Shown: one piece after another, positions 3,706 to 45,005 of the stretch | Layout of the letters: every line of letters starts with the position of its first letter | Numbering within the stretch: position 1 is the stretch's first letter | Notes under the pieces: generated by a model | Told to the model about the DNA's origin: nothing | What the model saw: the letters and a program-made list of their open reading frames with translations, nothing else | Databases searched by the model: none | IMG/VR virus record: IMGVR_UViG_3300020478_000010 | Location: 1-55,641 of that record | Length of the DNA stretch: 55,641 nucleotides | From: a virus | Taxonomy: Duplodnaviria; Caudoviricetes | Strand: one strand, 5' to 3' | Made by a program: the position numbers and the translations under genes

Positions 3706-5783
3706 GAAAAACTAAACTCAAAAAAGTGATTGAGGAGGCTGAGGAGGTTAACTCCTCTATCCTTGCTTTCGCTAAATCACACAAAATACCGAATGAGTAT
3801 TTTGAGTATATCCCAGTTGAAGCACACCCTGTTGTTGTTTCAGCTTCTCGTAAACTAAAAATCTTAGCTCCACACTTTGAGAAACTTGTTTCAGATATTA
3901 TTGTTGGTATCAGTAGCTTGAGACACTCATCAGCCGTGTTGAGCAAAGAGCATGATAACCGAGACCTTTGTCATGCACATAACTACACACTAACTGGCAT
4001 TGCCATATGGTCTAAAGACAACCAAACAGTATGGTCTTATCCTAATCTGTGGGTAACTAAAAGACACGTTTACGCAAGTGCCTATCAGTATCAAAATGAC
4101 GGACTTGCTACAGAGATTGCTTTGTTTCCAAAAGTTACTGCTAGACTCCGTGATAAAATTAATCTTGATATATCAAATGGTAGGACAGAGTCATGGACTC
4201 CAGTTAGTCGTGGCATCAAACGACTAGGTGCAAAGCGTGAACAATCTTTGTCAGGCTATCTTGCCAAATGTCTGATGTTTAGTGGTAAGAGTATGCAAAG
4301 CATTCATGGTGGTTCTCAAATCGTTGATGCAATCTCTGCAAAAGTTCATGAGTTGTATGCACCCACTGAGTTTCACTTTGCTGATACTGTAGAAGATATA
4401 CGTTATATGTACAAAGTAGTTAGCAGAGAAACCCCTACTTCATGTATGGATAGCAAGCATTCATTTGGTCTCAGGTACGAAGATGGTTCAGAGGCTAGAC
4501 CAGTTGACTTCTATGCTCATTGTCCAATCACACGTGGCGCCTATCTTAAACGTGGCGATACTGTTCTTGCTCGTACAATCTGTTGGCTGGATACTTTGAC
4601 CGACAGATGGTTCTTTGGCAGGGTGTATGGCAACAGGAGTGCTTATCAGACTAGCTTGATAAACAAACTCAAAGCAGAGATAAATCCTGAAACAAACTAT
4701 GGTTACACACAGTTATCTGACGACAGAGATTGGTTTCCCGGTCGTGGCAACTATGACTATGCTCCGTATCCAAATCGAGCAGTTGATACGTTTACTGTGC
4801 CGTATGCTCGGACAGATGATGACTACGAAGTTGCACTCATACCATATCTTGACCAACTGCCGTTCAACTCAATCAAGGTTGACGAAGGTAAGGGCGAGTG
4901 GACATATCACATCAATCACTCTGACAACCACGAGAAAGGCAATCACCCTATTGATGTTCGTGCTACCTGTGGTTACTATTATCCTGAGGGTGGTAGCAGT
5001 GATGACTATATCTACTGTGCTGAATGTGATACTGAACATTGGCATGAAGATGCTCTAGAAATTTCAGGTGAATATTTCTGCGACTCACACTGTGCCGTTG
5101 ACTATGGTTTGTGTCTCTATGTGCAATCAGATAATTCTCGTTGGCGACGACGAAGTCAATTACATGAGATTATACCTGTAGCAGATTATATTCCTGCCTT
5201 TGGTCAAGATGCGTTGTTTAGCAACTATCAGGCTGCGATAAATAATATGAATACTGCTATTTATCGTCCATCTTTGTTTGCGGAAACAGAGCTTGATTTT
5301 TTTGTCTATATTCGCAGGATAAGCTTACCATTTCTTGGTAACGAGTTACTTGTAGACGAAGATTCAAGTATGGCAAAAGATTATCAGGGACTTGGCAATG
5401 TTCATTTGTATCATCACCCTAGAGATGTGTATCTTGCAGAAACTAAAAATGTTGACATGACTTTTACTAAATCAGTTGTGAGCCAAATGACTCCAGATTA
5501 TCTTACTAAGATACAATGTAGACACGCAAATACAACGAGTATCATTGATACTGTATCTTGTACTCGTAACATTGAAGATAATTTACATATCAAAGACTCT
5601 TATAAGCTAATATCACATACTAGATATCGCAGTGACAATATACTTGACTTTGACATGGATAGAGAAGACAAAGCAATCTTTGAAGCTTTCTCTCAAAAAC
5701 TAGGAGATTTACCAAAACTACTTACTGGTGAACTTCCAAAACTAGAATTAATTGTAACAACCAATAAAGGAGAAACCAAATGA
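3702..5783 (+). CDS. Large early protein with SCM-motif (PcfJ/GNAT-like) domain and Cys-rich zinc-ribbon
   Basis: TSCM...LARTICW...FFGRVYG...IPYLD motif series, then CAECD...FCDSHC; AGGAG SD. Confidence 0.55.
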   Translation: MRKTKLKKVIEEAEEVNSSILAFAKSHKIPNEYFEYIPVEAHPVVVSASRKLKILAPHFEKLVSDIIVGISSLRHSSAVLSKEHDNRDLCHAHNYTLTGIAIWSKDNQTVWSYPNLWVTKRHVYASAYQYQNDGLATEIALFPKVTARLRDKINLDISNGRTESWTPVSRGIKRLGAKREQSLSGYLAKCLMFSGKSMQSIHGGSQIVDAISAKVHELYAPTEFHFADTVEDIRYMYKVVSRETPTSCMDSKHSFGLRYEDGSEARPVDFYAHCPITRGAYLKRGDTVLARTICWLDTLTDRWFFGRVYGNRSAYQTSLINKLKAEINPETNYGYTQLSDDRDWFPGRGNYDYAPYPNRAVDTFTVPYARTDDDYEVALIPYLDQLPFNSIKVDEGKGEWTYHINHSDNHEKGNHPIDVRATCGYYYPEGGSSDDYIYCAECDTEHWHEDALEISGEYFCDSHCAVDYGLCLYVQSDNSRWRRRSQLHEIIPVADYIPAFGQDALFSNYQAAINNMNTAIYRPSLFAETELDFFVYIRRISLPFLGNELLVDEDSSMAKDYQGLGNVHLYHHPRDVYLAETKNVDMTFTKSVVSQMTPDYLTKIQCRHANTTSIIDTVSCTRNIEDNLHIKDSYKLISHTRYRSDNILDFDMDREDKAIFEAFSQKLGDLPKLLTGELPKLELIVTTNKGETK

Positions 5784-7201
5784 CTGGTTCTTATTTCTAT
5801 AATATAAAACCCAAAGTAGAACTTGACGAGACAACTCGTCTACAACGAGGCGACGATAAGATGAATACTCTTCTATTCGACTTACTAACCAATGCTTCAC
5901 CAAATGGCACAGAGAAAGTTATTGCTGACATCATTACATCTTATGTCAATAAAAATTTACCTGCCAAGGCATATGAGATTATACCTGACAAGGAAGGAGA
6001 AAATCTTATTATTCGTGTCGGCAAAGCTAACAATGTAATGTTCAGTTCGCACATGGACACAGTTCATACAAGTAACAGACATAATATTAATCTTCATGTT
6101 ACTGATGAGAATTATGTCTATGGCTCTATCGACGATATGAGCAAACTGTATTACAATGATGATGACGAACACGTTACTCAACATCAGATTGAACAAGAGG
6201 CTAAAAAGCATGGTGCGTCATACGACCACTACATTATGTGGAGTGGCAAACTCTATGGTTCAGATGATGACTTTGACGGGTGGTCTGACCTCAACATGGA
6301 ATATACACACAAGCATGAAGTTATCACCAAAAATTCTGTACTTGGTGCTGATGACAAACTAGGTTGCTACATCATGTGTCGCATGATTGAGAAACGAGTT
6401 CCCGGTCTGTATGTCTTTCATGTAGGCGAAGAGTGTGGTGGTATCGGTTCTACTTATCTTTCTACATCTCGTAAAGAACTATTTACTAATATTGATTACT
6501 GTATTGCTTTCGACAGAAAAGGCTACAATGATGTCATCTATCGTCAATCAGGTGGTCAATGTTGTTCAAACATCTTTGCTAAAACTTTGTGTGATGAAAT
6601 CAACAAGTATCTTCCTCCGAAAGAAAAAGCTGAACCATCACCAAACGGCTCATTTACTGACTCAGCAAACTATACTGACTTGATTGCCGAGTGTACTAAT
6701 ATGCCAGTTGGTTACTTTGACCAACACAGTTCAGGAGAACACTTTGACCTTGAATGGCTTGAACGATATGCGATACCTGCTTACACCAGTATCAAATGGT
6801 CTTCCCTGCCTGTCAAGAGAAATCCTGACGAGCCAAAAGTCAACAACTACACGAGCCGTTTTAGTAGTTACAACAGACATGGCTATCGTGGTTACAATTC
6901 AGGCTACGGAGACTACCAAAATTCTTTTTGGGACGAAGACGAGTTTGAGCAACGACACTCTAGGACAAAGTCAACAAACAGAAACAAGCATCAATCAACT
7001 CTTGACAAGATAAAACATCTTGTAGAAAACAAGGTTGATAAGTATGAACCTGATATTGGCTTTGAAAGTGAAGAAACTCATGGACAAAGAGTTCAACGTG
7101 TGCTATATTCGTTTATAGCTTCTGACTTAACTTTAGAAGAGATTGCTGAACTTGTTGTAGACACCTATGACAATGCACAGGCAAATCATTATGATTGGTA
7201 A
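5780..7201 (+). CDS. M28/M20-clan zinc metallopeptidase
   Basis: Co-catalytic metal ligand motifs SHMDTVH, GADDKLG, GEECGG, AFDRK and DQHS. Confidence 0.8.
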   Translation: MTGSYFYNIKPKVELDETTRLQRGDDKMNTLLFDLLTNASPNGTEKVIADIITSYVNKNLPAKAYEIIPDKEGENLIIRVGKANNVMFSSHMDTVHTSNRHNINLHVTDENYVYGSIDDMSKLYYNDDDEHVTQHQIEQEAKKHGASYDHYIMWSGKLYGSDDDFDGWSDLNMEYTHKHEVITKNSVLGADDKLGCYIMCRMIEKRVPGLYVFHVGEECGGIGSTYLSTSRKELFTNIDYCIAFDRKGYNDVIYRQSGGQCCSNIFAKTLCDEINKYLPPKEKAEPSPNGSFTDSANYTDLIAECTNMPVGYFDQHSSGEHFDLEWLERYAIPAYTSIKWSSLPVKRNPDEPKVNNYTSRFSSYNRHGYRGYNSGYGDYQNSFWDEDEFEQRHSRTKSTNRNKHQSTLDKIKHLVENKVDKYEPDIGFESEETHGQRVQRVLYSFIASDLTLEEIAELVVDTYDNAQANHYDW

Positions 7202-7233
7202 GTCATAAGCTGTTTATCTCTTGTTTGACCCTT

Positions 7234-7271
7234 ATCCCTCATCTGCTTTTGCAGGTGGGGGATTTTTTTTT
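7234..7271 (+). terminator. Rho-independent terminator
   Basis: ATCCCTCATCTGC-TTTT-GCAGGTGGGGGAT stem followed by a T run. Confidence 0.9.
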
Positions 7272-7272
7272 G

Positions 7273-7301
7273 TTGACAGATTAATTTTAATATGCTAAAA
7301 G
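7273..7301 (+). promoter_or_regulatory. Sigma70-type promoter for the replication module
   Basis: TTGACA-N17-TAAAAG with TG extended -10. Confidence 0.55.
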
Positions 7302-7329
7302 CAAGCTACTTGCCGAGGGGGTACACCAT

Positions 7330-8106
7330 ATGGATAAGCTAACTAAATTTATTTTAGCACATTCTCCTAATGAGGGAATGTCTTTTAGAACTAACTGCCC
7401 AATGTGTGGTGGTCGAAACACATTTACAATTTCCAAACTACAAAGTAGATTATTATGGAACTGTTACAAAGCCAGTTGTAAAATTCGTGGCACAAAAGAA
7501 ACAGACAGAACAAAGCATGATATCGTGCAGAAGTTGCAAAACTATCATCCTTCTTTCTATCATAATTTTCAAATCCCTGATTATTTCACATCAGTCACAA
7601 ATAATGACAGAGCCTTGCGTTATTTAAAAAATAATAATTGTATAGATGCTTACGAAAATCGCCTTGCTAATATCATGTACGACCCTAAACAAGATAGAGT
7701 TGTGTTTATTGTAAAAGACGGAGTTCACATTGTTGACGCAATAGGTAGAAGTTTAAATTATAAAGTTAAACCAAAATGGTATAGATATGGTAAATCAGAA
7801 AAGTTATTTATTTGTGGCGATTCACAAGATGCTATACTTGTAGAAGATGCGGCAAGTGCTTGTGCTGTGTCTAAAATATTTACAGGGGTAGCTTTGTTAG
7901 GCACAAACTTAAAACACGCAGACCTCACATTTCTTAAGAAATTTCACAAAGTTCACATCTGTCTTGACCCTGATGCTACAAGAAAGTCGCTTGACATACA
8001 AAAGTATTTGTGCTATCTTGTTCCTAGTAATGTAATAAGGATAAAAGATGATTTAAAATATTTTGGGTCACAGGAGATTAAAAAATTAGTATCGAACAAC
8101 AGCTGA
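7330..8106 (+). CDS. DNA primase (zinc-binding domain + TOPRIM)
   Basis: CPMCGG...CYKASC zinc domain; LVEDAASA and CLDPDA TOPRIM motifs. Confidence 0.85.
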   Translation: MDKLTKFILAHSPNEGMSFRTNCPMCGGRNTFTISKLQSRLLWNCYKASCKIRGTKETDRTKHDIVQKLQNYHPSFYHNFQIPDYFTSVTNNDRALRYLKNNNCIDAYENRLANIMYDPKQDRVVFIVKDGVHIVDAIGRSLNYKVKPKWYRYGKSEKLFICGDSQDAILVEDAASACAVSKIFTGVALLGTNLKHADLTFLKKFHKVHICLDPDATRKSLDIQKYLCYLVPSNVIRIKDDLKYFGSQEIKKLVSNNS

Positions 8107-9302
8107 TAAAGCTTCTGTTGCAGAAAGATTTTTATCAAGAGAATAAGAATCGTGTAATGCCATCAATGTTCCCTGAGGAACTGTCTGATTTGTATGACAC
8201 TATCGTAACAGGACATAAACAATATGAAAGAGATTTAACCGTATCAGAGGTTCGTGAACTCTTTAAAGTTCACAACCCTACGATTACACGTGCCAAGCAT
8301 CAAGTAATCTCTGATATGCTCACAGACATTCACAACATTCCTGCAATCGGTAAGGACGTTGCCAAAGATGTTTTACAAAAAATATGGCAACAAGAGATTG
8401 GGCGAAATATAGCTGACATGGGTTTAGCTATTATGGAAGGCTCACCGGAAAAGATTGCTGATGTAAAAAGACTTGTAGAAAAATCAGAAGAAGGCTTTGT
8501 GCCTGATGATGATGTAGAGCCTGTAACAACAGATTTAGATACGCTTTTAGAGTTCACAAAGAATGAAGATTGTTGGCATTTTAATATACCAAGTTTAAGT
8601 AAAGTTGTACGTGGTGGCAAAGCAGGTGAATTTATGATTACCTTTGCACGACCTGAAATTGGCAAAACAGCTTTTTATGTTTCACTGGTAGCATCACCAA
8701 ATGGTTTTTGTTGTCAAGGCGCTGATGTTCACATTATTACAAACGAAGAACCTGCAAGACGGACTATGCTTCGTGCAGTATCGGCTTACACAGGATATGA
8801 TGAACATAATATCTTTGTCCACAAAAAACAGGCAAAAGAAAAGTTTGCTGAGATAGCCGCAAATATCACAATGGTTGATAATGTTGATGCTTCAATAGAA
8901 TGGCTAGATAAATATTGTGCAAACAAAAAACCACATATAATAATAGTTGACCAACTAGATAAACTTAACGTCATGGGTTCATTTGCAAGAACAGATGAAA
9001 AGCTACGTGAGATATATACTAAGTTTAGAGAAGTATGTAAACGTAGAGATGTTTTTGGTATAGGTGTTAGTCAAGCTAGTGCTGATGCTGAGGCTAGAAC
9101 TAACGTAACTTATGCTATGATGGAGAATAGTAAAACTGGTAAAGCCGCTGAAGCTGATTTAATTATTGGCATAGGTAAATCAGATGTTACAGATAACAAC
9201 GATAGCCGTCGATATCTCACAATATCTAAAAATAAGTTGACAGGTTTTCATGGTAACATAGTATGCAACCTAAATACTGACTTGAGCAGGTACACGGCAT
9301 GA
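8085..9302 (+). CDS. DnaB-like (SF4) replicative helicase
   Basis: Walker A ARPEIGKT, NEEP, IIVDQLD, GVSQA, KAAEAD, ISKNK; frame open from 8082; ATT start at 8085 proposed (track start is TTG 8118). Confidence 0.9.
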   Translation: MSIEQQLIKLLLQKDFYQENKNRVMPSMFPEELSDLYDTIVTGHKQYERDLTVSEVRELFKVHNPTITRAKHQVISDMLTDIHNIPAIGKDVAKDVLQKIWQQEIGRNIADMGLAIMEGSPEKIADVKRLVEKSEEGFVPDDDVEPVTTDLDTLLEFTKNEDCWHFNIPSLSKVVRGGKAGEFMITFARPEIGKTAFYVSLVASPNGFCCQGADVHIITNEEPARRTMLRAVSAYTGYDEHNIFVHKKQAKEKFAEIAANITMVDNVDASIEWLDKYCANKKPHIIIVDQLDKLNVMGSFARTDEKLREIYTKFREVCKRRDVFGIGVSQASADAEARTNVTYAMMENSKTGKAAEADLIIGIGKSDVTDNNDSRRYLTISKNKLTGFHGNIVCNLNTDLSRYTA

Positions 9303-23811: not shown

Positions 23812-26097
23812 TTATTGTATATCAGATACGCCAGTTGTTACAAAATTTTTCCTATATGCTTTTTCGTCTTGTCTGTAAGCATATATTGCTTCCATAGCAA
23901 GAATAGCACGCTTGTGAAGTATATCAAATTCTGTTAAATACGCATCTTTTTCTTTTTGTGTTGTTAAATTATTAAACTCTTCTTTTGTTAATATTTTACC
24001 TGTAGAAGAAATACCACTAGCCAATACCATTTTATTTAATAAATCACGGGCTATAGAATCTTCATCAAAATCAATGCCTCCATCTTTTTTAACAATAATC
24101 GTTTTATTAGGCATTAAGTCTGACAAGCCAATTGCTATTCCTGTTGTAAATATTCTTTCTACCCCAACTAACGCAGCTTGTGCAGCACTTGAACCAATAG
24201 CATTATTGTTAATAATTCCAATAAAATTTAATACTAATTTTAAATCTTGGTCAGATAGACGGGGGTCTTCAAATAATCTCCCTTTAACATTAGTTATAAA
24301 TCCGGTTTTTCGCTGTTCTGCATCTTGTAGCATACCTGTCATTCGTCTGTCTGCTAGGTCGTAACCTGTTACTGTTGCTTGAATATCTGAAATGTTACCA
24401 AAAAAACGTCTAGCATTTCCTATTGCATTATAAGCATTTGGAAATTCTCTTAGTAATCCTAATAAGAAAGATACATCTCCCAGTCCTGTTTGATTTCTAT
24501 TAAGATTATTATTAATTTCTTTTATAATTTCATCAGTGGGTTCACTTCGTTCTCCCGGACCAATATTAATTTGTTTTACAAAAACTTTTATTTGTCCATC
24601 AACTCCAACTACTACATCTTCAGCGTACAGTCTGCCATCAAGAATATGAGCATCCATAATAGCAAACTCATTTGCTTTTGTTCTTACTTCATTTGCAATT
24701 TGTTTTTGTTTTTCTTCATTCCCCGCTGCGTTAGAAAGTAATTCTGCGTAATAGGGAGATGTAATAATTGAATTATAAAACATATCCGATTTTACTTGTT
24801 CTTTTGCACTAAGTGTTTTTTCCTCTTCTGGATATGTTGGTTTTAAATTTTTAACCAGCAAATTAACAACTTGCCAAGCCTCATCATTATCAAGATTCCG
24901 TTGTGCATGTGTAAGAGCATCACTTAATTCTTCTATTTTACCTGCAGGATATTCAACTCCTTTAGATATACTTTTTTCAAGATGTTTAACGGCTAAATCA
25001 TTTATAGTTTTTTGATATGGTGATAATTTCTTTTCAGTGGTTTTTTGTTTTATTACTTTATTTTGTGTTATATCAAAATACAACTCTTCTACTTTTTGCC
25101 AATCTTCATCTTCACCACTTCCTATAGCCTCAGCTTGTGCTTTACCTAGCTGTAATATTTTTGCGTTGTCAAAGGTTATATCTTTATTATTTATAACAGA
25201 GCCTAGTAATGTTTCTGTATTTTTAGATAAGGTTTGCCATTTTAAATCTATTTTAGCGTTTTCTGGTTTAGATATAGGTACAATTTTTTCAACTCTGCCA
25301 CTAATTAACGCCATACTAACTGCATCATCATTTTCCATAGCAGTTATCATGTTATTAATAGCACTTTGAGCAAACGTAACATCTCCTTCTTTATATTGTC
25401 CTTGATTATCAGGACTTAGAACACGATTGATAACAGTTTTTACATTTAAAAACATTTGTCCGGAAGGAGAATCTGTTGAAAATATGCTCTTCTCATCTTG
25501 TTTTTCTAAAGCAGCTAACATAGCTTCAGGAGCAGGTTTAACCTTGTATTGTACTTCAGGTAATAAATCACCAAATGTACCAGATAACATACTTTTTACT
25601 CTGTCAACAGATACCCCTCGTCTTTTTGCAAATATTTTTATAGCCTCTTCAGTACCATACTGCTTAAATAAACCTGCAAAGTCGCTAAGCATAGAAGTTT
25701 CAACAGCTTCTTTAGGTGCAGCATCTACTTGCATTTGGTCAGTCAAAGTTGTTTCTTTAGTGGGTGCAATAGCTAGAGTAGGAATTTCTTGGTCGCCATA
25801 GGTGTCAATCATGTTTTTTAGTTGTTCTCGTGTTTTGCTTTCATCTCCACCGTTAGCTGCATATACAGAATTTACTATACCTTTCTCTACACCAAAATCA
25901 CTGGCTATACGTTCTATATTAGCAATGTTAGCTTGGGCTGCTGACATTTTAGTTTTAAACTCTTTTTCTGCATTATTATACAAAAGTCCCATTTCTTTTA
26001 AATCTTCTTCTAACTTTGCCGGTACAGCTTGCAGTCCGGCTGTACCCATATCGGCAGCCCCCTTTATTAATCCTGCTGCAAATGAACTTAATGCCAT
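23812..26097 (-). CDS. Internal virion / ejection protein
   Basis: 761 aa; N-terminal SFAAGLIKGAA amphipathic helix typical of podovirus core proteins. Confidence 0.6.
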   Translation of the reverse strand: MALSSFAAGLIKGAADMGTAGLQAVPAKLEEDLKEMGLLYNNAEKEFKTKMSAAQANIANIERIASDFGVEKGIVNSVYAANGGDESKTREQLKNMIDTYGDQEIPTLAIAPTKETTLTDQMQVDAAPKEAVETSMLSDFAGLFKQYGTEEAIKIFAKRRGVSVDRVKSMLSGTFGDLLPEVQYKVKPAPEAMLAALEKQDEKSIFSTDSPSGQMFLNVKTVINRVLSPDNQGQYKEGDVTFAQSAINNMITAMENDDAVSMALISGRVEKIVPISKPENAKIDLKWQTLSKNTETLLGSVINNKDITFDNAKILQLGKAQAEAIGSGEDEDWQKVEELYFDITQNKVIKQKTTEKKLSPYQKTINDLAVKHLEKSISKGVEYPAGKIEELSDALTHAQRNLDNDEAWQVVNLLVKNLKPTYPEEEKTLSAKEQVKSDMFYNSIITSPYYAELLSNAAGNEEKQKQIANEVRTKANEFAIMDAHILDGRLYAEDVVVGVDGQIKVFVKQINIGPGERSEPTDEIIKEINNNLNRNQTGLGDVSFLLGLLREFPNAYNAIGNARRFFGNISDIQATVTGYDLADRRMTGMLQDAEQRKTGFITNVKGRLFEDPRLSDQDLKLVLNFIGIINNNAIGSSAAQAALVGVERIFTTGIAIGLSDLMPNKTIIVKKDGGIDFDEDSIARDLLNKMVLASGISSTGKILTKEEFNNLTTQKEKDAYLTEFDILHKRAILAMEAIYAYRQDEKAYRKNFVTTGVSDIQ

Positions 26098-26636
26098 TAT
26101 ATAGTCTCCTTTTTAGCCATAATACCTTGTGGTTGTATTTCTTCTTTAATTTCTTGTGTTTTTTGAGGTGCTGGTGTAATTTTACCTTCAAACTCTTTCT
26201 TTTCTTTTTCCCCTCTAGCTAACTGATGGAACACGTCTTCAACATCTATTTCATCTTCTGATTCTGAAACTTTATATTTAATCCCTGCTGAGTCAGCTAA
26301 ATACATAATCAACATGCCTAAATCTTCTACTGCAAGTATAGCTACGTCAGGAGTAAACATACCCTCTGAAAAACCTGCTAGTAGCATAGAATCCACCAGT
26401 GTATCTACAGGAATACCGGAAGATAATAATCCAATAAGATGTTGTGCAGACTCTTCGTTGTTAAATTTAGATGCAAAATGGTCCATAACCTCATCTGCAG
26501 TATTAAACATAGGAGGTTTGTCCCATGGGTAAAGCCCCGGTGCTTTTGTCCAAGACTGTCCGGGTATATTTGTGTCAAATGCAGAACGCTCTGCACCGCT
26601 TGGTAAAGTGATTTTGTCAGATAAAATTGGTTTCAT
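26097..26636 (-). CDS. Conserved virion-module protein
   Basis: IPGQSWT...YPWDKPP...GFSEGMFTPD motif; TAATG-coupled. Confidence 0.65.
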   Translation of the reverse strand: MKPILSDKITLPSGAERSAFDTNIPGQSWTKAPGLYPWDKPPMFNTADEVMDHFASKFNNEESAQHLIGLLSSGIPVDTLVDSMLLAGFSEGMFTPDVAILAVEDLGMLIMYLADSAGIKYKVSESEDEIDVEDVFHQLARGEKEKKEFEGKITPAPQKTQEIKEEIQPQGIMAKKETI

Positions 26637-26637
26637 A

Positions 26638-26886
26638 TTAGCTATACTTTGTTATATTAAGCATTTTACGTAAAACGGAATTATATTTACTTGTTGCTGT
26701 TAATGCTGAACCAACAACAGGTGCGGCTTTGCTTTTAGGGCTATATCCTGTTCTTTTTCCGCTTCTTGCCATAAAAGGTCGTAGGTTAACTGATGGAGGT
26801 TTAGGCACAGGTTGTGCTTTAGTGCCTCCTATTAATTTATCTTTGGCTATTCCTAGCATCATACTTGTTACTAATTGTCCTAACAT
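26638..26886 (-). CDS. Small virion-module protein
   Basis: 82-aa basic ORF in operon. Confidence 0.55.
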   Translation of the reverse strand: MLGQLVTSMMLGIAKDKLIGGTKAQPVPKPPSVNLRPFMARSGKRTGYSPKSKAAPVVGSALTATSKYNSVLRKMLNITKYS

Positions 26887-26887
26887 A

Positions 26888-28822
26888 TTACTTACCTGTA
26901 TCCTTTTGAATTTTAGCTATACCTAGTGCTGTTAAAAACTCTCCAATAGAGGTAGCAGCTGAAGTATTTACATATTGGTCATACATATCTTTATTTACTT
27001 TTGATTCTAATATAGCCATAGCATAATTAAATGTTCTATCTTTTGAATTTTCTGCCGCTGAATATGCATAATCAGCTTCATCTCTATATTGTTGCCATAT
27101 ATTATTTAATGCAGTATTTGATATAGATAAATAATTTGTAGCGTTAATCTGATTAGCAGCATTTACTGCTGCAGTATTAGCTGTATTAACATTTCTACGC
27201 CAAGCGGCATTACTTTGTGCAATTTCTACAGAGTTTTTAGTATTAAACTGTTCACGTTGATTTTGCATTGTTGCTTTAAATTGTTGTAATGCGTTAGCTT
27301 GCCCTGCATTAAACTGTTCTTTTGCATTATTTTGTGCAGCATTAAACTGCGATATATTTGTAGATAACGTATCATAAAATTGATTTACTTGATTTTGACT
27401 TGTGGCATTAAACTGTTCAGCAGCATTTAAAGATGCTTGGTCAGATAACATACCTTGCATACGTGCCTGTTGATTAATTACTTCTGCCTGTTGTGCATTT
27501 GTTAAATTCGCCATTTCTATTTGCATAAAGTTTTGTGAAGATAGCACAGCGGCTTGTTGTCTATTATTTAAATTAGCTGTATCCATACTAGCAAGAGTTG
27601 CTGCATTTTGCAAGGTAGCCGCCTGTCTATTTGACAAGTTTTGTAATTCCATTGTTTCAATCATTTTAGAGTTAGCAAAAACTCTTTGTTGTTCTTGTGT
27701 AAAATTAAGATTGGCAGCTTCAGCAAATCTCTCAGCATTGAGGACATTTGCTTGTTGTTGGTTTGAGAGGGATTGTCCTGCTAAAGCTGCCTCTACCTGC
27801 ATTTTTGCTAACGCAGTTTGTTGACGATTTGAGGTATTCGCCAAATCTATATTCATATTATTTTGAGTATTTGTCAACCTTGCTTGCTGCTCATTATCCA
27901 TTATCTTAACAGCAGTTTGATAATACGTTTGTGCATCTTGTACAGCGATTGGTACAGAAGCTTCCATAACAGCTTGTGTTATTGCAGCTCCTGCCATTGA
28001 AGAAGCAGGTATCCCTCTTGCCGCCATTTGAGCATTTGCTGTTCTAACAACACCCGCTGCCCATGGTGGTACTTGTCCTTCATCAAATTGTTCAGATAGT
28101 CGTGTAAGCTGTCCTTCTACAGTCATGTCTGGAGTAACCTGCATGGTTGCTCCCTTCATATCACTTACAAATCCAGATTGTGCAGCCTGATACTTGTCTA
28201 AAAATCTAGTGTCTCCTATTGCAGCAACAACTTTTTCATCATCTCCAACTTGTCTTTCAGTTAAATCGCCCCTTTCAATAGTTTTAGCAGTTCCTGTTTG
28301 ACCCTCTGCAAGTGTTCCTATTTCTCCTTGTGCTGCATCTACCCCAACGGCAGTTCCTGTTTGTGCTTGTACCTCCGGGGTATCTCCTAAAAGAGCAGGA
28401 TTCATAGTTGCTGCAGGTACTTTACCTGCGGCTGTAGCAGTTTGTACACCAGCTTGTGTTTGTTCTACAGTAGGCAATCCAGTAACTTGCCCTAAGCTAG
28501 GGTCTAAAGTTTCATATCCTTCGTAAATTAATTGTTGTTGGGGGGTATATACACCTTGAGCGGGCATTAATGGATTAACTGCTTGTTCGCCCATGTAAGT
28601 TGCAACAGATGTAGGTTGAACTTCTGCAGGTGGTTGTTCTACAGGTGGTTCTGGTTGAGGACCCGGAGGTCCATCATCTTCCCCTATCATTAAAGTTTTT
28701 ACAACACCGTCAATCGGACCTATACCAGGCGGAAACTGTGGGTTTTGATTTGGGTCCATATAAGTATTATCTGCTGGAGTTTTAACTGGTTTGTCTGTTT
28801 GTTTTGGTGTATTTTCTGCCAT
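26888..28822 (-). CDS. Gln/Asn/Ala-rich internal virion (pilot-like) protein with N-terminal plesiocin-like motif
   Basis: VPPWAAG...MAARG...SSMAG motif, long (A/L)NxQQ and QFNA repeats; KTLMIGEDD at residues 42-50. Confidence 0.7.
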   Translation of the reverse strand: MAENTPKQTDKPVKTPADNTYMDPNQNPQFPPGIGPIDGVVKTLMIGEDDGPPGPQPEPPVEQPPAEVQPTSVATYMGEQAVNPLMPAQGVYTPQQQLIYEGYETLDPSLGQVTGLPTVEQTQAGVQTATAAGKVPAATMNPALLGDTPEVQAQTGTAVGVDAAQGEIGTLAEGQTGTAKTIERGDLTERQVGDDEKVVAAIGDTRFLDKYQAAQSGFVSDMKGATMQVTPDMTVEGQLTRLSEQFDEGQVPPWAAGVVRTANAQMAARGIPASSMAGAAITQAVMEASVPIAVQDAQTYYQTAVKIMDNEQQARLTNTQNNMNIDLANTSNRQQTALAKMQVEAALAGQSLSNQQQANVLNAERFAEAANLNFTQEQQRVFANSKMIETMELQNLSNRQAATLQNAATLASMDTANLNNRQQAAVLSSQNFMQIEMANLTNAQQAEVINQQARMQGMLSDQASLNAAEQFNATSQNQVNQFYDTLSTNISQFNAAQNNAKEQFNAGQANALQQFKATMQNQREQFNTKNSVEIAQSNAAWRRNVNTANTAAVNAANQINATNYLSISNTALNNIWQQYRDEADYAYSAAENSKDRTFNYAMAILESKVNKDMYDQYVNTSAATSIGEFLTALGIAKIQKDTGK

Positions 28823-29580
28823 TATTTTAATCCGTTTACTATTTCAAAAGATATTTGATTATTTACTTCTTGGTCAAAAGCTACAAACATTGGGTTTGTG
28901 TTTGTCTCTAGATACCAAATACCACTTTCATCTTCCATAAAATCACTTGCACTAAAATTTAAATTTAATTTTTTTACAAGTTGTTTTGTTTTATTTACTA
29001 TATCATCACTAAATTTAGATTTTATAACAGTTGAACTTTCATCATCCCTATAGTCTAATTTATCTGTTACTATTTCAAATCCAAAATGTTTATCATTAAC
29101 TATATACAATCTTTTATTTTTGCCTGTTATTTTCTTTTGAAATATTACAGGAAACTGTGCCATAGTTACTTCTTTAGTGTGTTCTCCACCTGTTATGGGT
29201 TTGGCTATAACATTTTCTTTACTTGTTTTATCTGTACACTCTGTTTCTAAAATAGGTAATCCTATGTTTTTAGCATGTAATAAATTATGTAACTTCATAG
29301 GTGTTTCGTAATTATAATTTTTATTGTACATTTTTACATTATTATATTTAATATAATTTTTTATTATATGCCAATTATTATACATCAAAGTGTTATCTTT
29401 TTTAAAAACATTATATCTTAAAAATATGCTTGTTATGTTAACATTTTGATGATTAACTAATAACTTATTATTTAGTACGTCCCAATATATATTACTTTCT
29501 TGGTCAATAAAATTAGTAAAATAAGGTCTTAGAGTTTTTATGTTTGGGTCAGTAAGTTGACCAAATAAATAATCAGACAC
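28822..29580 (-). CDS. ATP-grasp peptide ligase (RimK/graspetide synthetase-like)
   Basis: KLHNLLHAKNIGLPI, IAKPITGG, PVIFQKKI...KRLYIV, LDYR, LNLNFSASDF, WYLETNTNPMF. Confidence 0.85.
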   Translation of the reverse strand: MSDYLFGQLTDPNIKTLRPYFTNFIDQESNIYWDVLNNKLLVNHQNVNITSIFLRYNVFKKDNTLMYNNWHIIKNYIKYNNVKMYNKNYNYETPMKLHNLLHAKNIGLPILETECTDKTSKENVIAKPITGGEHTKEVTMAQFPVIFQKKITGKNKRLYIVNDKHFGFEIVTDKLDYRDDESSTVIKSKFSDDIVNKTKQLVKKLNLNFSASDFMEDESGIWYLETNTNPMFVAFDQEVNNQISFEIVNGLK

Positions 29581-29810
29581 TATTTACCTATTAATATCTT
29601 ATCTAATTTATCTTCTAGTCTTTGTAGTGCATCCATTACTGTATGCATATCTTCTTTTACGTCATCACGCTTTGCGTACTCTTCTCTTGTCTTGTTAATA
29701 AGTATATCTATACGTTTTATTTCTGATAGCATACTACGAAACATCCATATAGCAGGTGCTATTACAAGTGTAAGCACACCATTCCAAAATAGTATTGGGC
29801 TTATTTCCAT
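29580..29810 (-). CDS. Small membrane-anchored coiled-coil protein
   Basis: N-terminal TM helix and C-terminal RLEDKLDK. Confidence 0.7.
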   Translation of the reverse strand: MEISPILFWNGVLTLVIAPAIWMFRSMLSEIKRIDILINKTREEYAKRDDVKEDMHTVMDALQRLEDKLDKILIGK

Positions 29811-42851: not shown

Positions 42852-45005
42852 TTATATGTCTTTAGAAACAAAAAGTCCAGTAATAAAAAACTGTACAGTT
42901 CTAAAGTAGTAATTTAATCTCAGTTTTAAACCCTTTTTAAGTCCTCTGCCAAAAGAAACAAAGTCCTTAAACTCTTGATAAAATTGTGACGCAGTATCTT
43001 GTTCAACGTGTTTGCCTGCTAAGTACCTATAACCACGTCTAAATGCTTCACCATACCATTTACCATGATATGTTTTTTCGCACCATATCTCTGCTTTAGC
43101 TTTTTCCATTGGACTAAAGCCACCATTAGCTACACCATGTGTTGCAATAACACATTTTTCATCTTTTTCTTGTTTTTCTTCTTTCTCTTCTTTGCCAAGA
43201 TTAACCCCTAATATTTTTCCGCCTGTGCCTGTTGTAATAGTAACCGGCTTAGAATCTTCATGTTTAGATTCTATTGTAGTGCCTTGGACTGGGTCTCGTT
43301 TAACCACAGTTCTAGGCTCAGGTTCAGGTTTAGGTTTTATTGGAGCACCATAGTCTTCGTCTCTGTAGGGCGTGTATGGTTCTTCAGCTTGTTGGGCTAA
43401 AATTTGTTGAGTTTGTGTATTTACTTCTTCTCCCGGAAAAGAACCTTCATCAACTTTTTTAGATAACGCTTCATCAATACTAATTTCTTCAGGCGGAGCT
43501 TCTTTTCTTGCTTTAGCAACGTCACTTTGATAATATCGTTTAACCGCTTCGTCTATTGGTCTAGTGCCATCAGGTCGTTCTGCATTGTTAAATAAAAATC
43601 CGGGTAAACCAAATGAACCAAGAGGTGTGTTGGCTTTAATATTACCCCCTTGTATATATAGTGCTATTTCTTCAGGTGTAGTAAACCCTGCAGCAATAGC
43701 TTGTGTTACAGCACTATCGTAACTTCTGTCCATATCTGCACGTGCCTGTGCCATACTTTGGGGTGACGTAGCATCATCTCTTGGGTCGACTTTTGGAGGT
43801 TCAACTAAAGGAGCCAGTGTTGTTGTAACTTTAGGAGCTTCAGGTGCACCATCATCTTCTTCAGGATTAATAATATCAGTATAACTTCCTACATTAGGTG
43901 CAACAATAGGTGCATTAGGATTTGTTACTGGAGCATAAGCAAGTGTCAGAGGATTAGATGGAGGATAAGGCAGATAAGGGTAGGGGCTCATGTAACCGGG
44001 AAAAGGACCCATTCCCGGAAGGGCATTAACGCGTCGGGTGTTGTTTGTGTTTGATGTGTTAACCAAACCTTTATTTGCTTTTTTTATACCAGTATCGTAA
44101 TTAATCTGTCCAGAGTTCTCCATTTCTGATAATCCCATAAGAGCTTCTCGTCTTAGTCCTTCATATGTACCAAGTCCATGATATCGTACAACATTAGCAG
44201 GAACGACTAACTCACCTTCACTCATCAACACATGCTGGTCATCAGCTACTTCATCTGCTGTTGCTCCCGGAGGTGGGTCTTTTGGTGTACCCATAGAAGC
44301 TTCTTCATAAGCTGGCATAGGAGAACTACCAAGTCCAATAACAACAGACATGCCTTCTTTATCTGTTTTTGTTCCGCCACGTTTTGCCATCATTGGTTTT
44401 TCAGGTGGCATCATATCTAAAGCAGGAGCAGCTAAACCTTGAGCTCCTTGTGCTACAAGACTATCTGATGTAAGAGGAGCAGGGGGAGCAGGAGAAGTAG
44501 GGGGAGTAGGGGGAGTAGGAGGTTTCTGCGCCTGTTTTTTTTGACTTTGTTGCATTACAAGTTGTATTGCTTCATCTCTTGGGTCAGTTCCCGGTCCTGC
44601 CTTTGGTTTTGGAACAGGTGGGGGTGGCATTAATGTAGCAGGATTACCTGCTTTTGGTGCATTACCTTGCGGTGCAGCCTGTGCTTCTGTCATTGGGTTT
44701 GCCATTATCTCTCCTCCTCTGGCTTTTCTCTGTGGTACAATATCACTTAGTGCCTTTGAAAATGCTGTAGGGTCTAGCCCTTCAGGCACTAATAGTGCAT
44801 CACCTAATTCTTCTGCTTTTTTTATAGCTTCTTTATCTTTTAATTTATAAAGTTTTCCATCTTCTCCCATACGAATAGTTGGTACTAAATACATTTTACC
44901 ATCTATTTCTACATCAATGGTTCTCATGGTTTCATTATCATCAGTCATTGGTGTACTAGGGTCAAAAGCCCTTTTTAACCAAGATGGTAATTTATCATTT
45001 GCCAT
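42852..45005 (-). CDS. Modular head-associated protein (Pro-rich; DDxxxxxSEGExVVPA domain; C-terminal CVIATH domain)
   Basis: ADDQHVLMSEGELVVPANVVRYHG; KCVIATHG...FRRGY; possible internal ATG at 44705 after GGAGGAG. Confidence 0.65.
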   Translation of the reverse strand: MANDKLPSWLKRAFDPSTPMTDDNETMRTIDVEIDGKMYLVPTIRMGEDGKLYKLKDKEAIKKAEELGDALLVPEGLDPTAFSKALSDIVPQRKARGGEIMANPMTEAQAAPQGNAPKAGNPATLMPPPPVPKPKAGPGTDPRDEAIQLVMQQSQKKQAQKPPTPPTPPTSPAPPAPLTSDSLVAQGAQGLAAPALDMMPPEKPMMAKRGGTKTDKEGMSVVIGLGSSPMPAYEEASMGTPKDPPPGATADEVADDQHVLMSEGELVVPANVVRYHGLGTYEGLRREALMGLSEMENSGQINYDTGIKKANKGLVNTSNTNNTRRVNALPGMGPFPGYMSPYPYLPYPPSNPLTLAYAPVTNPNAPIVAPNVGSYTDIINPEEDDGAPEAPKVTTTLAPLVEPPKVDPRDDATSPQSMAQARADMDRSYDSAVTQAIAAGFTTPEEIALYIQGGNIKANTPLGSFGLPGFLFNNAERPDGTRPIDEAVKRYYQSDVAKARKEAPPEEISIDEALSKKVDEGSFPGEEVNTQTQQILAQQAEEPYTPYRDEDYGAPIKPKPEPEPRTVVKRDPVQGTTIESKHEDSKPVTITTGTGGKILGVNLGKEEKEEKQEKDEKCVIATHGVANGGFSPMEKAKAEIWCEKTYHGKWYGEAFRRGYRYLAGKHVEQDTASQFYQEFKDFVSFGRGLKKGLKLRLNYYFRTVQFFITGLFVSKDI

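Follow-up and report, generated by a model that had tools for sequence, protein, structure and literature searches.

A putative graspetide-type ATP-grasp ligase coupled to a core-bearing late-operon protein in a marine HMO-2011-type phage

Overview of the module

We analysed a two-gene module in the late operon of a virus of the Caudoviricetes (IMG/VR record IMGVR_UViG_3300020478_000010); the window, that is the whole stretch of DNA analysed, is a complete virus record of 55,641 bases (CheckV 100%). The module comprises a gene for a 252-amino-acid (aa) ATP-grasp ligase followed directly by a gene for a 644-aa protein with a plesiocin-like core motif near its N-terminus. Homology, the conservation of residues for catalysis and core binding, co-occurrence, joint gain or loss and covariation together make it probable, about as firmly as comparative genomics permits, that the two encode a compact Group-2 (plesiocin-type) graspetide macrocyclase and a coupled, core-bearing substrate protein, with the chemistry, timing and role given here as predictions. 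The graspetide interpretation put forward in an initial annotation of this DNA is supported by the present results. Direct reading confirmed the ligase open reading frame (ORF) given there and its TAATG junction, in which the ligase stop overlaps the start of the 644-aa ORF, as well as the motif V41-K-T-L-M-I-G-E-D-D-G51 (nt 28702..28670) within a Pro/Gly-rich N-terminus that holds 17 Pro and 6 Gly in its first 75 residues. The features of the module are as follows.

28822..29580, minus strand: predicted compact graspetide-type ATP-grasp macrocyclase, 252 aa, GTG start (ORF; NCBIfam TIGR04187 and PDB profile matches)
29047..29055, minus strand: D176-Y177-R178, equivalent of the essential D(F/W)R loop of PsnB (aligned with PsnB DFR, chain 253-255 = paper 233-235)
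29110..29112, minus strand: R157, equivalent of PsnB Arg213 (alignment columns)
29416..29418, minus strand: R55, equivalent of PsnB Arg72 (transitive, from the bacterial-type profile against PsnB and the phage/bacterial ligase alignment)
26888..28822, minus strand: 644-aa substrate protein with a conserved Q/N/A-rich C-terminal part, a putative virion or ejection protein by position (ORF, homologs, synteny)
28613..28795, minus strand: Pro-rich N-terminal insertion of about 58 residues (residues ~10-70) that holds the core (alignment with loci L018-L022)
28673..28699, minus strand: core K42-T43-L-M-I-G47-E48-D49-D50, with a predicted T43-E48 ester (inner) and K42-D49 amide (outer) (sequence, motif class statistics, PsnB ring map)

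Profile searches with the ligase

The 252-aa ligase had no match in Pfam and a single weak, RimK-like match in PHROGs (an 'S6 glutaminyl transferase' family, 1.4e-4). Against NCBIfam, the top match was TIGR04187, 'ATP-grasp ribosomal peptide maturase' (2.5e-11), followed by MvdC (5.1e-6), MvdD (1.1e-4) and RimK (0.015), and the top three of these models are graspetide maturases. A profile built from 19 members of the ligase family was searched against the PDB. The results revealed six sequences at E < 1e-4, all graspetide macrocyclases (PsnB, CdnC, AMdnB, MdnB, 9bou and MdnC), with PsnB of plesiocin (7drm) as the best match (5.3e-14); beyond these six the PDB search gave nothing below an E of 0.3, and no RimK structure. 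An exhaustive search for relatives of the ligase returned 543 representatives at E <= 1e-3, and in a sample of 48 from this wider family TIGR04187 was matched by 48/48 (best 5.6e-47), MvdC by 47, MvdD by 46 and RimK by 29. The ATP-grasp identity of the ORF rests on hidden Markov models (HMMs), and the searches indicate that the ligase groups with graspetide macrocyclases and not with RimK, the alternative placement that the initial annotation had set against its own. A tblastn search of 50,697 annotated phage records with the ligase found no match, so that collection contains no cultured phage known to have the module.

Ligase residues aligned with PsnB

Residues were mapped by counting along the alignments, the PsnB chain number being the paper number plus 20. 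In the accessible part of the PsnB study (bioRxiv 10.1101/2021.03.09.434688), Arg213 grips the ring-forming Glu, Arg72 contacts the backbone of core Gly36, the D(F/W)R loop at 233-235 is essential, Arg101 is specific to Group 2a, and the leader is contacted by Y171, R181, R192, I193, L196, V201 and F203. The LDYR of the ligase, likened to DWR-like motifs when the gene was first annotated, does align through its DYR with the DFR loop of PsnB, its middle residue being Y and not F or W. The three residues of this loop, R157 and R55 were invariant in the 19 close family members. Across the 48 divergent relatives, the invariant positions were K127, Q148, R157, D176, R178, D213, E225 and N227, while R55 was conserved in at least 90%.

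Other parts of PsnB have no counterpart in the phage enzyme. Arg101 (chain 121) falls in a PsnB insertion that is missing from a profile of bacterial-type compact ligases (see below), and the ligase is therefore not placed in Group 2a. The spacing from the GG loop to Q148 was 15 residues in 19/19 phage enzymes, compared with 15-26 (median 23) in the bacterial-type relatives; the phage ligases lack the 8-11 residues that carry the leader contacts R192, I193 and L196 in PsnB.

The 644-aa protein and its core

The best annotated relatives of the 644-aa protein come from Puniceispirillum phage HMO-2011, roseophages CRP-1/-9/-207 and pelagiphages HTVC103P/104P, and on these grounds the phage of the window is of the HMO-2011 type. 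Homologs were found in 27 phage records (HMO-2011-type and related podophages), each aligning from residue 135 or later. The protein matched no Pfam, NCBIfam or PHROG family, Pfam and PHROG were likewise blank for 11/11 homologs, and the ESM Atlas returned unnamed viral clusters only.

The core lies in an N-terminal insertion. The five closest relatives of the substrate gene (L018-L022, 63-66% identical) lack the stretch of residues ~10-70, and two of them (L021 and L022) visibly lack the ligase as well, with none between the gene for a small transmembrane (TM) protein and the substrate gene. A further relative, L098, has a ligase 87% identical to that of the window and the same protein layout, with a shorter insertion and a single core, K-T-L-A-I-G-E-D-D. 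Conserved N-termini of the MAMFKGFKP type were considered as a leader and rejected, being also present in ligase-less homologs; no ligase-specific conserved N-terminus was found in the substrate family.

The window core has the inner-pair geometry Thr(i)/Glu(i+5) with a Gly before the Glu (T43, G47, E48). Its outer pair is K42/D49, and not the Thr(i-1)/Glu(i+6) of TTxxxxEE. In plesiocin, according to the accessible part of bioRxiv 10.1101/2021.03.09.434688, the inner ring T32-E37 forms first and the outer ring is T31-E38. The pairs T43-E48 and K42-D49, the second of which had been offered as a possibility in the initial annotation, match these inner and outer positions, and the covariation described below supports the outer pair.

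Elsewhere in the window no other ORF contained a strict core (defined below). The sequence PTIRMGEDG at residues 42-50 of a 717-aa ORF (42852..45005, minus strand), with its Thr again at 43, was weighed as a second substrate. Its surroundings are ordinary charged, structured-looking, non-Pro/Gly sequence, and with R at +2 it does not fit the strict core; it is probably a chance occurrence.

Association of ligase and cores

A strict core was defined as T-x-[AM]-x-G-E and a loose one as TxxxGE. In the window and 13 further IMG/VR ligase loci, the ORF directly after the ligase held 1-9 TxxxGE in 14/14 cases, compared with 0/3 for the ligase-less HMO-2011 gp25, HTVC103P gp59 and CRP-1 gp35. A pooled set that included 80 metagenome loci gave 91 downstream ORFs; 76 had at least 150 readable residues, and these formed 57 clusters at 90% identity. 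Strict cores were present in 53/57 of these non-redundant downstream proteins (1-11 each, 224 in total), and the first core fell within the first ten residues in 15/80 metagenome loci. Outside the downstream ORF, the same ligase loci yielded 2 strict matches in 266,354 six-frame residues. One of the two, V-T-M-M-V-G-E-E-Q-G, stands at the extreme C-terminus of a 422-aa ORF that follows a 374-aa core-bearing protein (L160:6877-8145, plus strand), and this ORF may be a second substrate.

In the reverse direction, the conserved domain of the 644-aa protein was the sole criterion for choosing 80 loci. The ligase was found in 1/80 (L032, the same contig as L011), with 5 cores, and the other 79 proteins (55,606 residues) gave 3 loose or 2 strict matches. 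The whole locus was searched on both strands, and 57/79 ligase-less loci extend at least 900 nt upstream of the gene. The co-occurrence of motif and ligase that the initial annotation had proposed as a check was thus observed (53/57 proteins after a ligase with cores; 2 strict cores in the 79 homologs without one).

The cores were fused to the conserved domain common with ligase-less phages in 43/57 representatives. A second substrate family (L014, L159, L160, L165; 355-393 aa), which is not detectably homologous and stands in another phage context, was also core-bearing.

Core classes and natural variation

The cores follow the profile P/G-rich, hydrophobic, A, [T/K], T, [M/R/Q/L], A, [V/I/M], G, E, [D/E], [G/D], then G/P-rich. 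Representatives carried 0-11 cores (median 4 in relatives) at a median spacing of 20 residues, and several loop types (R-, M-, Q- and L-loop cores) were often combined in one protein. The residue at -1 and the residue after the Glu varied together. With K at -1, the latter was D in 62/63 cores; with T at -1, it was E in 69/85 and D in 12; with a non-nucleophile at -1, it was non-acidic in 25/76 cores, compared with 4/148 where a nucleophile was present. This K/D versus T/E covariation fits a two-ring topology and supports the predicted outer pair. In 688 ordered pairs of related proteins, with the cores defined in one protein of the pair, T0, G+4 and E+5 were retained in 85% and A+2 in 76% of partners, while the loop positions +1 and +3 were retained in about 30%, like the linkers at 33%.

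Contigs from three other seawater studies or runs bridge the ligase and the core, among them X11 (1,756 nt) and X5 (1,582 nt), which take in the ligase together with the N-terminal part of the substrate gene. In these contigs the core was unchanged and its flanks varied. X11 showed 11 substitutions, 2 synonymous in the ligase and 9 in the N-terminal region of the substrate, with none in the core codons, numbers too small for a test. Several flank changes near the core were non-synonymous. Three independent seawater runs had in common an in-frame 6-nt (two-codon) deletion that lies two to five residues upstream of the core (window 28706..28717, residues 36-39); the linker tolerates indels and the core is constant.

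Bacterial relatives of the ligase

The closest cellular homologs of the phage ligase were found at E 1e-25 to 1e-17. Carriers of the compact ligase included cyanobacteria, Acidobacteriota, Longimicrobium, Thiothrix and Myxococcota. From 274 relatives in bacterial genomes, 80 loci were kept (L178-L257), and a bacterial-type profile was built from a 15-sequence alignment of compact ligases of ~265-300 aa; this profile matched PsnB in the PDB at 6.2e-37. An ORF with at least two TxxxGE or at least one TTxxxxEE was present in 76/80 loci. A multi-core ORF lay directly upstream of the ligase on the same strand in 70/80, with 2-25 cores of the TTLAVGEEG kind, which is the plesiocin (Group 2) core. 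The bacterial cores were of the T/S…E type in 558/589 and of the K…D type in 0/589. A quick IQ-TREE analysis placed 27/27 sampled phage or viral-metagenome ligases on one side of a long branch (Shimodaira-Hasegawa-like approximate likelihood ratio test, SH-aLRT, 99), apart from 40 bacterial ones.

Individual bacterial loci showed further features. A Myxococcales metagenome-assembled genome (MAG) encodes a very large precursor with up to 25 TTxxxGEE cores in one 673-aa frame (L240:975-2993). Near their start, the cyanobacterial precursors have in common an I-T-V-H-A-G-E-F element, possibly a leader element. An Azospirillaceae MAG (L234:1912-2904) has seven cores that are all of a 'single-ring' class, an aromatic or hydrophobic residue followed by T-x-A-x-G-E-D-G, and this class was otherwise met mixed into phage proteins.

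Points that weigh against the graspetide interpretation

Several observations count against reading the module as a graspetide system. The TIGR04187 score was 43.3 bits, compared with a curated cut-off of 350, and covered model positions 164-306 of 312 only; the TIGR04187, MvdC, MvdD and RimK matches were all far under their curated cut-offs. Given this score and the absence of a Pfam match, the enzyme is therefore taken to be divergent and shortened, and its activity is assumed. One bacterial-type enzyme has an equally short segment between the GG loop and Q148, so the deletion is no proof of leader independence.

The substrate raises points of its own. The window has one core, and this core has M at +2, where 207/224 cores have A and 17/224 have M. 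In the window's own ORFs (19,316 residues), the loose TxxxGE was seen 7 times, and the single motif of the window, taken alone, is indistinguishable from chance. It is the comparison of 231 TxxxGE in 35,106 residues of ligase-linked proteins with 3 in 55,606 residues of ligase-less homologs that makes the motif significant. The four core-negative loci are also to be counted here. L103 and L149 have intact ligase genes and no core in the readable downstream protein (312 and 163 aa), L128 has only a near-motif with Pro for Gly, and L113 has a truncated 163-aa ORF with no core. The ligases of L103 and L149 neighbour core-positive loci (L102 and L157) in the tree, which suggests recent core loss, and both look like recent losses or orphan ligases. 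The Fisher p values for the covariation (3.6e-27, and 2e-12 on unique 9-mers) ignore relatedness and are thus upper bounds on its strength, and repeats can guide the alignment behind the retention figures, which are supportive only.

Finally, the label 'internal virion protein' in the initial annotation was not confirmed, as it stands on gene order and the protein belongs to no Pfam or PHROG family. We infer a putative virion or ejection location from synteny and gene order; no virion proteomics of HMO-2011-type or related phages was found in the literature searched. The role described below is inferred purely. In sum, the system works like a Group-2 graspetide system, but it falls short of the curated HMM score and has neither a dedicated leader-bearing precursor nor, in this phage, the TT/EE outer pair.

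Proposed mechanism, role and alternatives

In the mechanism that we consider probable, a two-part module would have been inserted at one place in the late operon, the macrocyclase first and the translationally coupled substrate after it, the core of the latter protein lying within its N-terminal insertion, which is Pro-rich and probably disordered. In the cytoplasm of the infected cell, the ligase would phosphorylate the E48 side chain with ATP, and attack by T43 would close the inner ring as a side-chain ester, the counterpart of plesiocin T32-E37. A second round would join D49 to K42 through an amide and close the outer ring. The 644-aa protein would then display a small bicyclic hairpin, and relatives would display up to 11 such knots. 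Recognition seems to proceed through the core itself, without a leader peptide, because first cores can occur very early (15/80 loci), the conserved N-terminus is common to ligase-less homologs, and leader-contact residues of PsnB are missing.

As to the role, we tentatively favour, within this mechanism, knots that are protease-resistant or protease-inhibiting loops, while granting that this may well be wrong. They would shield the 644-aa protein, and perhaps proteins that enter with it, from host proteases, and the loop residues M/R/Q/L would set target specificity. A bolder and distinctly doubtful extension is that HMO-2011-type phages and at least one other marine podophage lineage captured a macrocyclase of peptides that are ribosomally synthesised and then modified post-translationally (RiPPs), shed its leader dependence, and string arrays of bicyclic protease-inhibitor knots, including a phage-invented Lys-Asp/Thr-Glu hybrid, on a protein that accompanies the genome. 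Such an array would be a virion-delivered, multi-specificity blocker of host proteolytic defences at entry.

Alternatively, the cross-links may form as proposed yet inhibit no protease and serve a purely mechanical or protective purpose for the disordered N-terminus, such as its stability in seawater or in the course of assembly. The cores do lie in low-complexity linkers, and loop positions as variable as those linkers would be neutral under a purely structural role. However, the characterised graspetides are all reported as protease inhibitors in the accessible part of Makarova et al. 2022, and the frequent combination of R-, M-, Q- and L-loop cores on one protein is expected for multiple specificities. 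Neither point is decisive, and we rate the purely mechanical role as unlikely but worth keeping in view.

It is considerably less probable that the large protein is a carrier only, whose N-terminal region is cleaved away to liberate graspetide peptides, for instance at lysis, as a phage natural product. Multi-core precursors in known systems are processed to peptides, and the bacterial relatives use dedicated precursors of 2-25 cores. The phage proteins have their cores a median of 20 residues apart, in a linker that is flexible and Pro/Gly-rich, and the Gly/Pro-rich second substrate family (355-393 aa, as in L160) resembles a giant precursor more than a structural protein. On the other hand, no protease or transporter gene accompanies the module, the sole difference from ligase-less relatives being the ligase gene and the insertion. 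The fusion of the cores to the conserved domain in 43/57 representatives and the single core of the window also argue against mere carriage.

We think it very improbable that the pairing is vestigial in the phage of the window, with modification of its single, slightly off-consensus core lost, or with the ligase directed at another target. The window has one core, with M at +2, where relatives have a median of 4, and ligase-positive loci without readable cores exist (L103, L149). Against this, the catalytic and core-binding residues are all intact, and M at +2 recurs in 17/224 cores. L098 keeps the same single core (K-T-L-A-I-G-E-D-D), natural variants show only synonymous ligase changes and none in the core, and a strict core is absent from every other ORF of the window.

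That the enzyme is instead a RimK-like amino-acid ligase decorating acidic residues, for example by polyglutamylation and without rings, can be practically dismissed: it has in its favour the weak PHROG match (1.4e-4) and the RimK matches of 29/48 wider-family members, but the RimK model scored far behind the graspetide maturase (0.015 vs 2.5e-11), no RimK appeared among the PDB matches, an invariant Thr before the Glu and the K/D-T/E covariation would be meaningless for tail addition, and the acidic residues are internal rather than C-terminal.

Genome context

The late operon runs on the minus strand through terminase, portal, major head and tail proteins, small fibre-like ORFs, a 98-aa ORF and a 76-aa TM protein; the 252-aa ligase and the 644-aa ORF follow, and then ORFs of 82, 179, 761, 1042 and 1082 aa. 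The 644-aa protein thus stands at the end of the structural operon, ahead of very large proteins, the gene order used to recognise podovirus ejection proteins. The same gene block is also present in HMO-2011, HTVC103P, CRP-1 and phiM6. One neighbouring gene, outside the system, is given for context.

29580..29810, minus strand: gene of the 76-aa TM protein, directly upstream of the ligase (ORF; PHROG 12220/462 matches)

Direct reading showed a TAGTG junction, in which the stop of the TM-protein gene overlaps the GTG start of the ligase. This gene lies directly next to the substrate gene in the ligase-less L021 and L022. A block made up of the substrate-family protein and ORFs of 65-82, 179-183 and 575-761 aa is kept from marine HMO-2011-type phages to Sinorhizobium phage phiM6 (window 26097..26886 and 23812..26097; L259, phiM6, 5762-8237). 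An annotated endolysin lies just upstream of that block in phiM6, and the small TM proteins before the ligase may therefore be lysis genes.

Near-identical copies of this region of the window were found in seawater metagenomes from many studies. In the one RNA run (X20), three contigs matched the stretch, all short (336, 45 and 134 nt); DNA is possible in such libraries, and these contigs were not counted as transcription.

Implications

To our knowledge, graspetide chemistry has otherwise been known solely from bacteria, where it turns dedicated leader-bearing precursors into small secreted peptides. In the present case, this enzyme family is found in viruses, apparently leaderless and aimed at a late-operon protein of 500-1100 residues. 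If the proposal is right, a phage protein would bear a side-chain macrocycle installed by an enzyme, and the module would offer a natural case of leader-independent graspetide cyclisation, useful for protein engineering, together with a new class of core, K-T…E-D. Among marine phages, the carriers fall into one of the most abundant groups; with such abundant carriers and copies in many seawater metagenomes, any effect on infection would be ecologically relevant. Phage-encoded graspetide chemistry was undescribed in the titles and abstracts listed by the literature searches, a coverage that left out most subscription journals and supplements, and the word 'phage' is absent from the main text of the graspetide phylogenomics paper.

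Comparison with known systems

The nearest characterised system is plesiocin (PsnB and PsnA2, Group 2). The equivalents of Arg72, Arg213 and D(F/W)R are kept in the phage ligase, and the core geometry is alike, with two nucleophile positions, three variable residues, a Gly and two acid positions. The phage enzyme is shorter, at 252 aa compared with 334 aa for the PsnB chain (of which about 20 are tag residues by the numbering offset), and it lacks both the segment of the leader contacts R192, I193 and L196 and the insertion with Arg101. Its predicted substrate is a 644-aa protein without a recognisable leader, in place of a short dedicated precursor whose N-terminal leader binds the enzyme and activates it. 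The substrate gene follows the ligase downstream, where that of plesiocin lies upstream; K/D replaces T/E as the outer pair, and the system is virus-encoded.

The bacterial compact-ligase systems share with the phage module an N-terminal D-P-N motif, the L-D-Y-R loop and repeated cores of the same consensus. They differ in having the precursor upstream (70/80) and no K…D cores, while the phage ligases form a long-stemmed group with three deletions. Microviridin-type multi-core precursors, as described in the accessible part of a 2018 study (Nat Commun 2018, PMC5934393), likewise have several cores per polypeptide served by one ATP-grasp cyclase, but their core is TxRxPSDxDE and they are leader-dependent, with a dedicated precursor.

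A parallel in gene order is T7 IVP-A, a non-structural acetyltransferase-like gene that heads the internal-virion-protein operon, according to the available text of Hardies et al. 2016 (PMC4819975). The ligase gene is likewise an enzyme-like, presumably non-virion gene right before putative podovirus ejection-protein genes. The two differ in fold and chemistry, which are unrelated, and in distribution, IVP-A being widespread in that account and the ligase a rare accessory gene (1/80 loci).

Side-chain cross-links that toughen an exposed protein also have precedents in the Lys-Asn isopeptides of the HK97 capsid and the Thr-Gln esters of Gram-positive adhesins, both of which are autocatalytic. 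These bonds form without a dedicated ATP-dependent enzyme, whereas the phage described here encodes a separate ligase.

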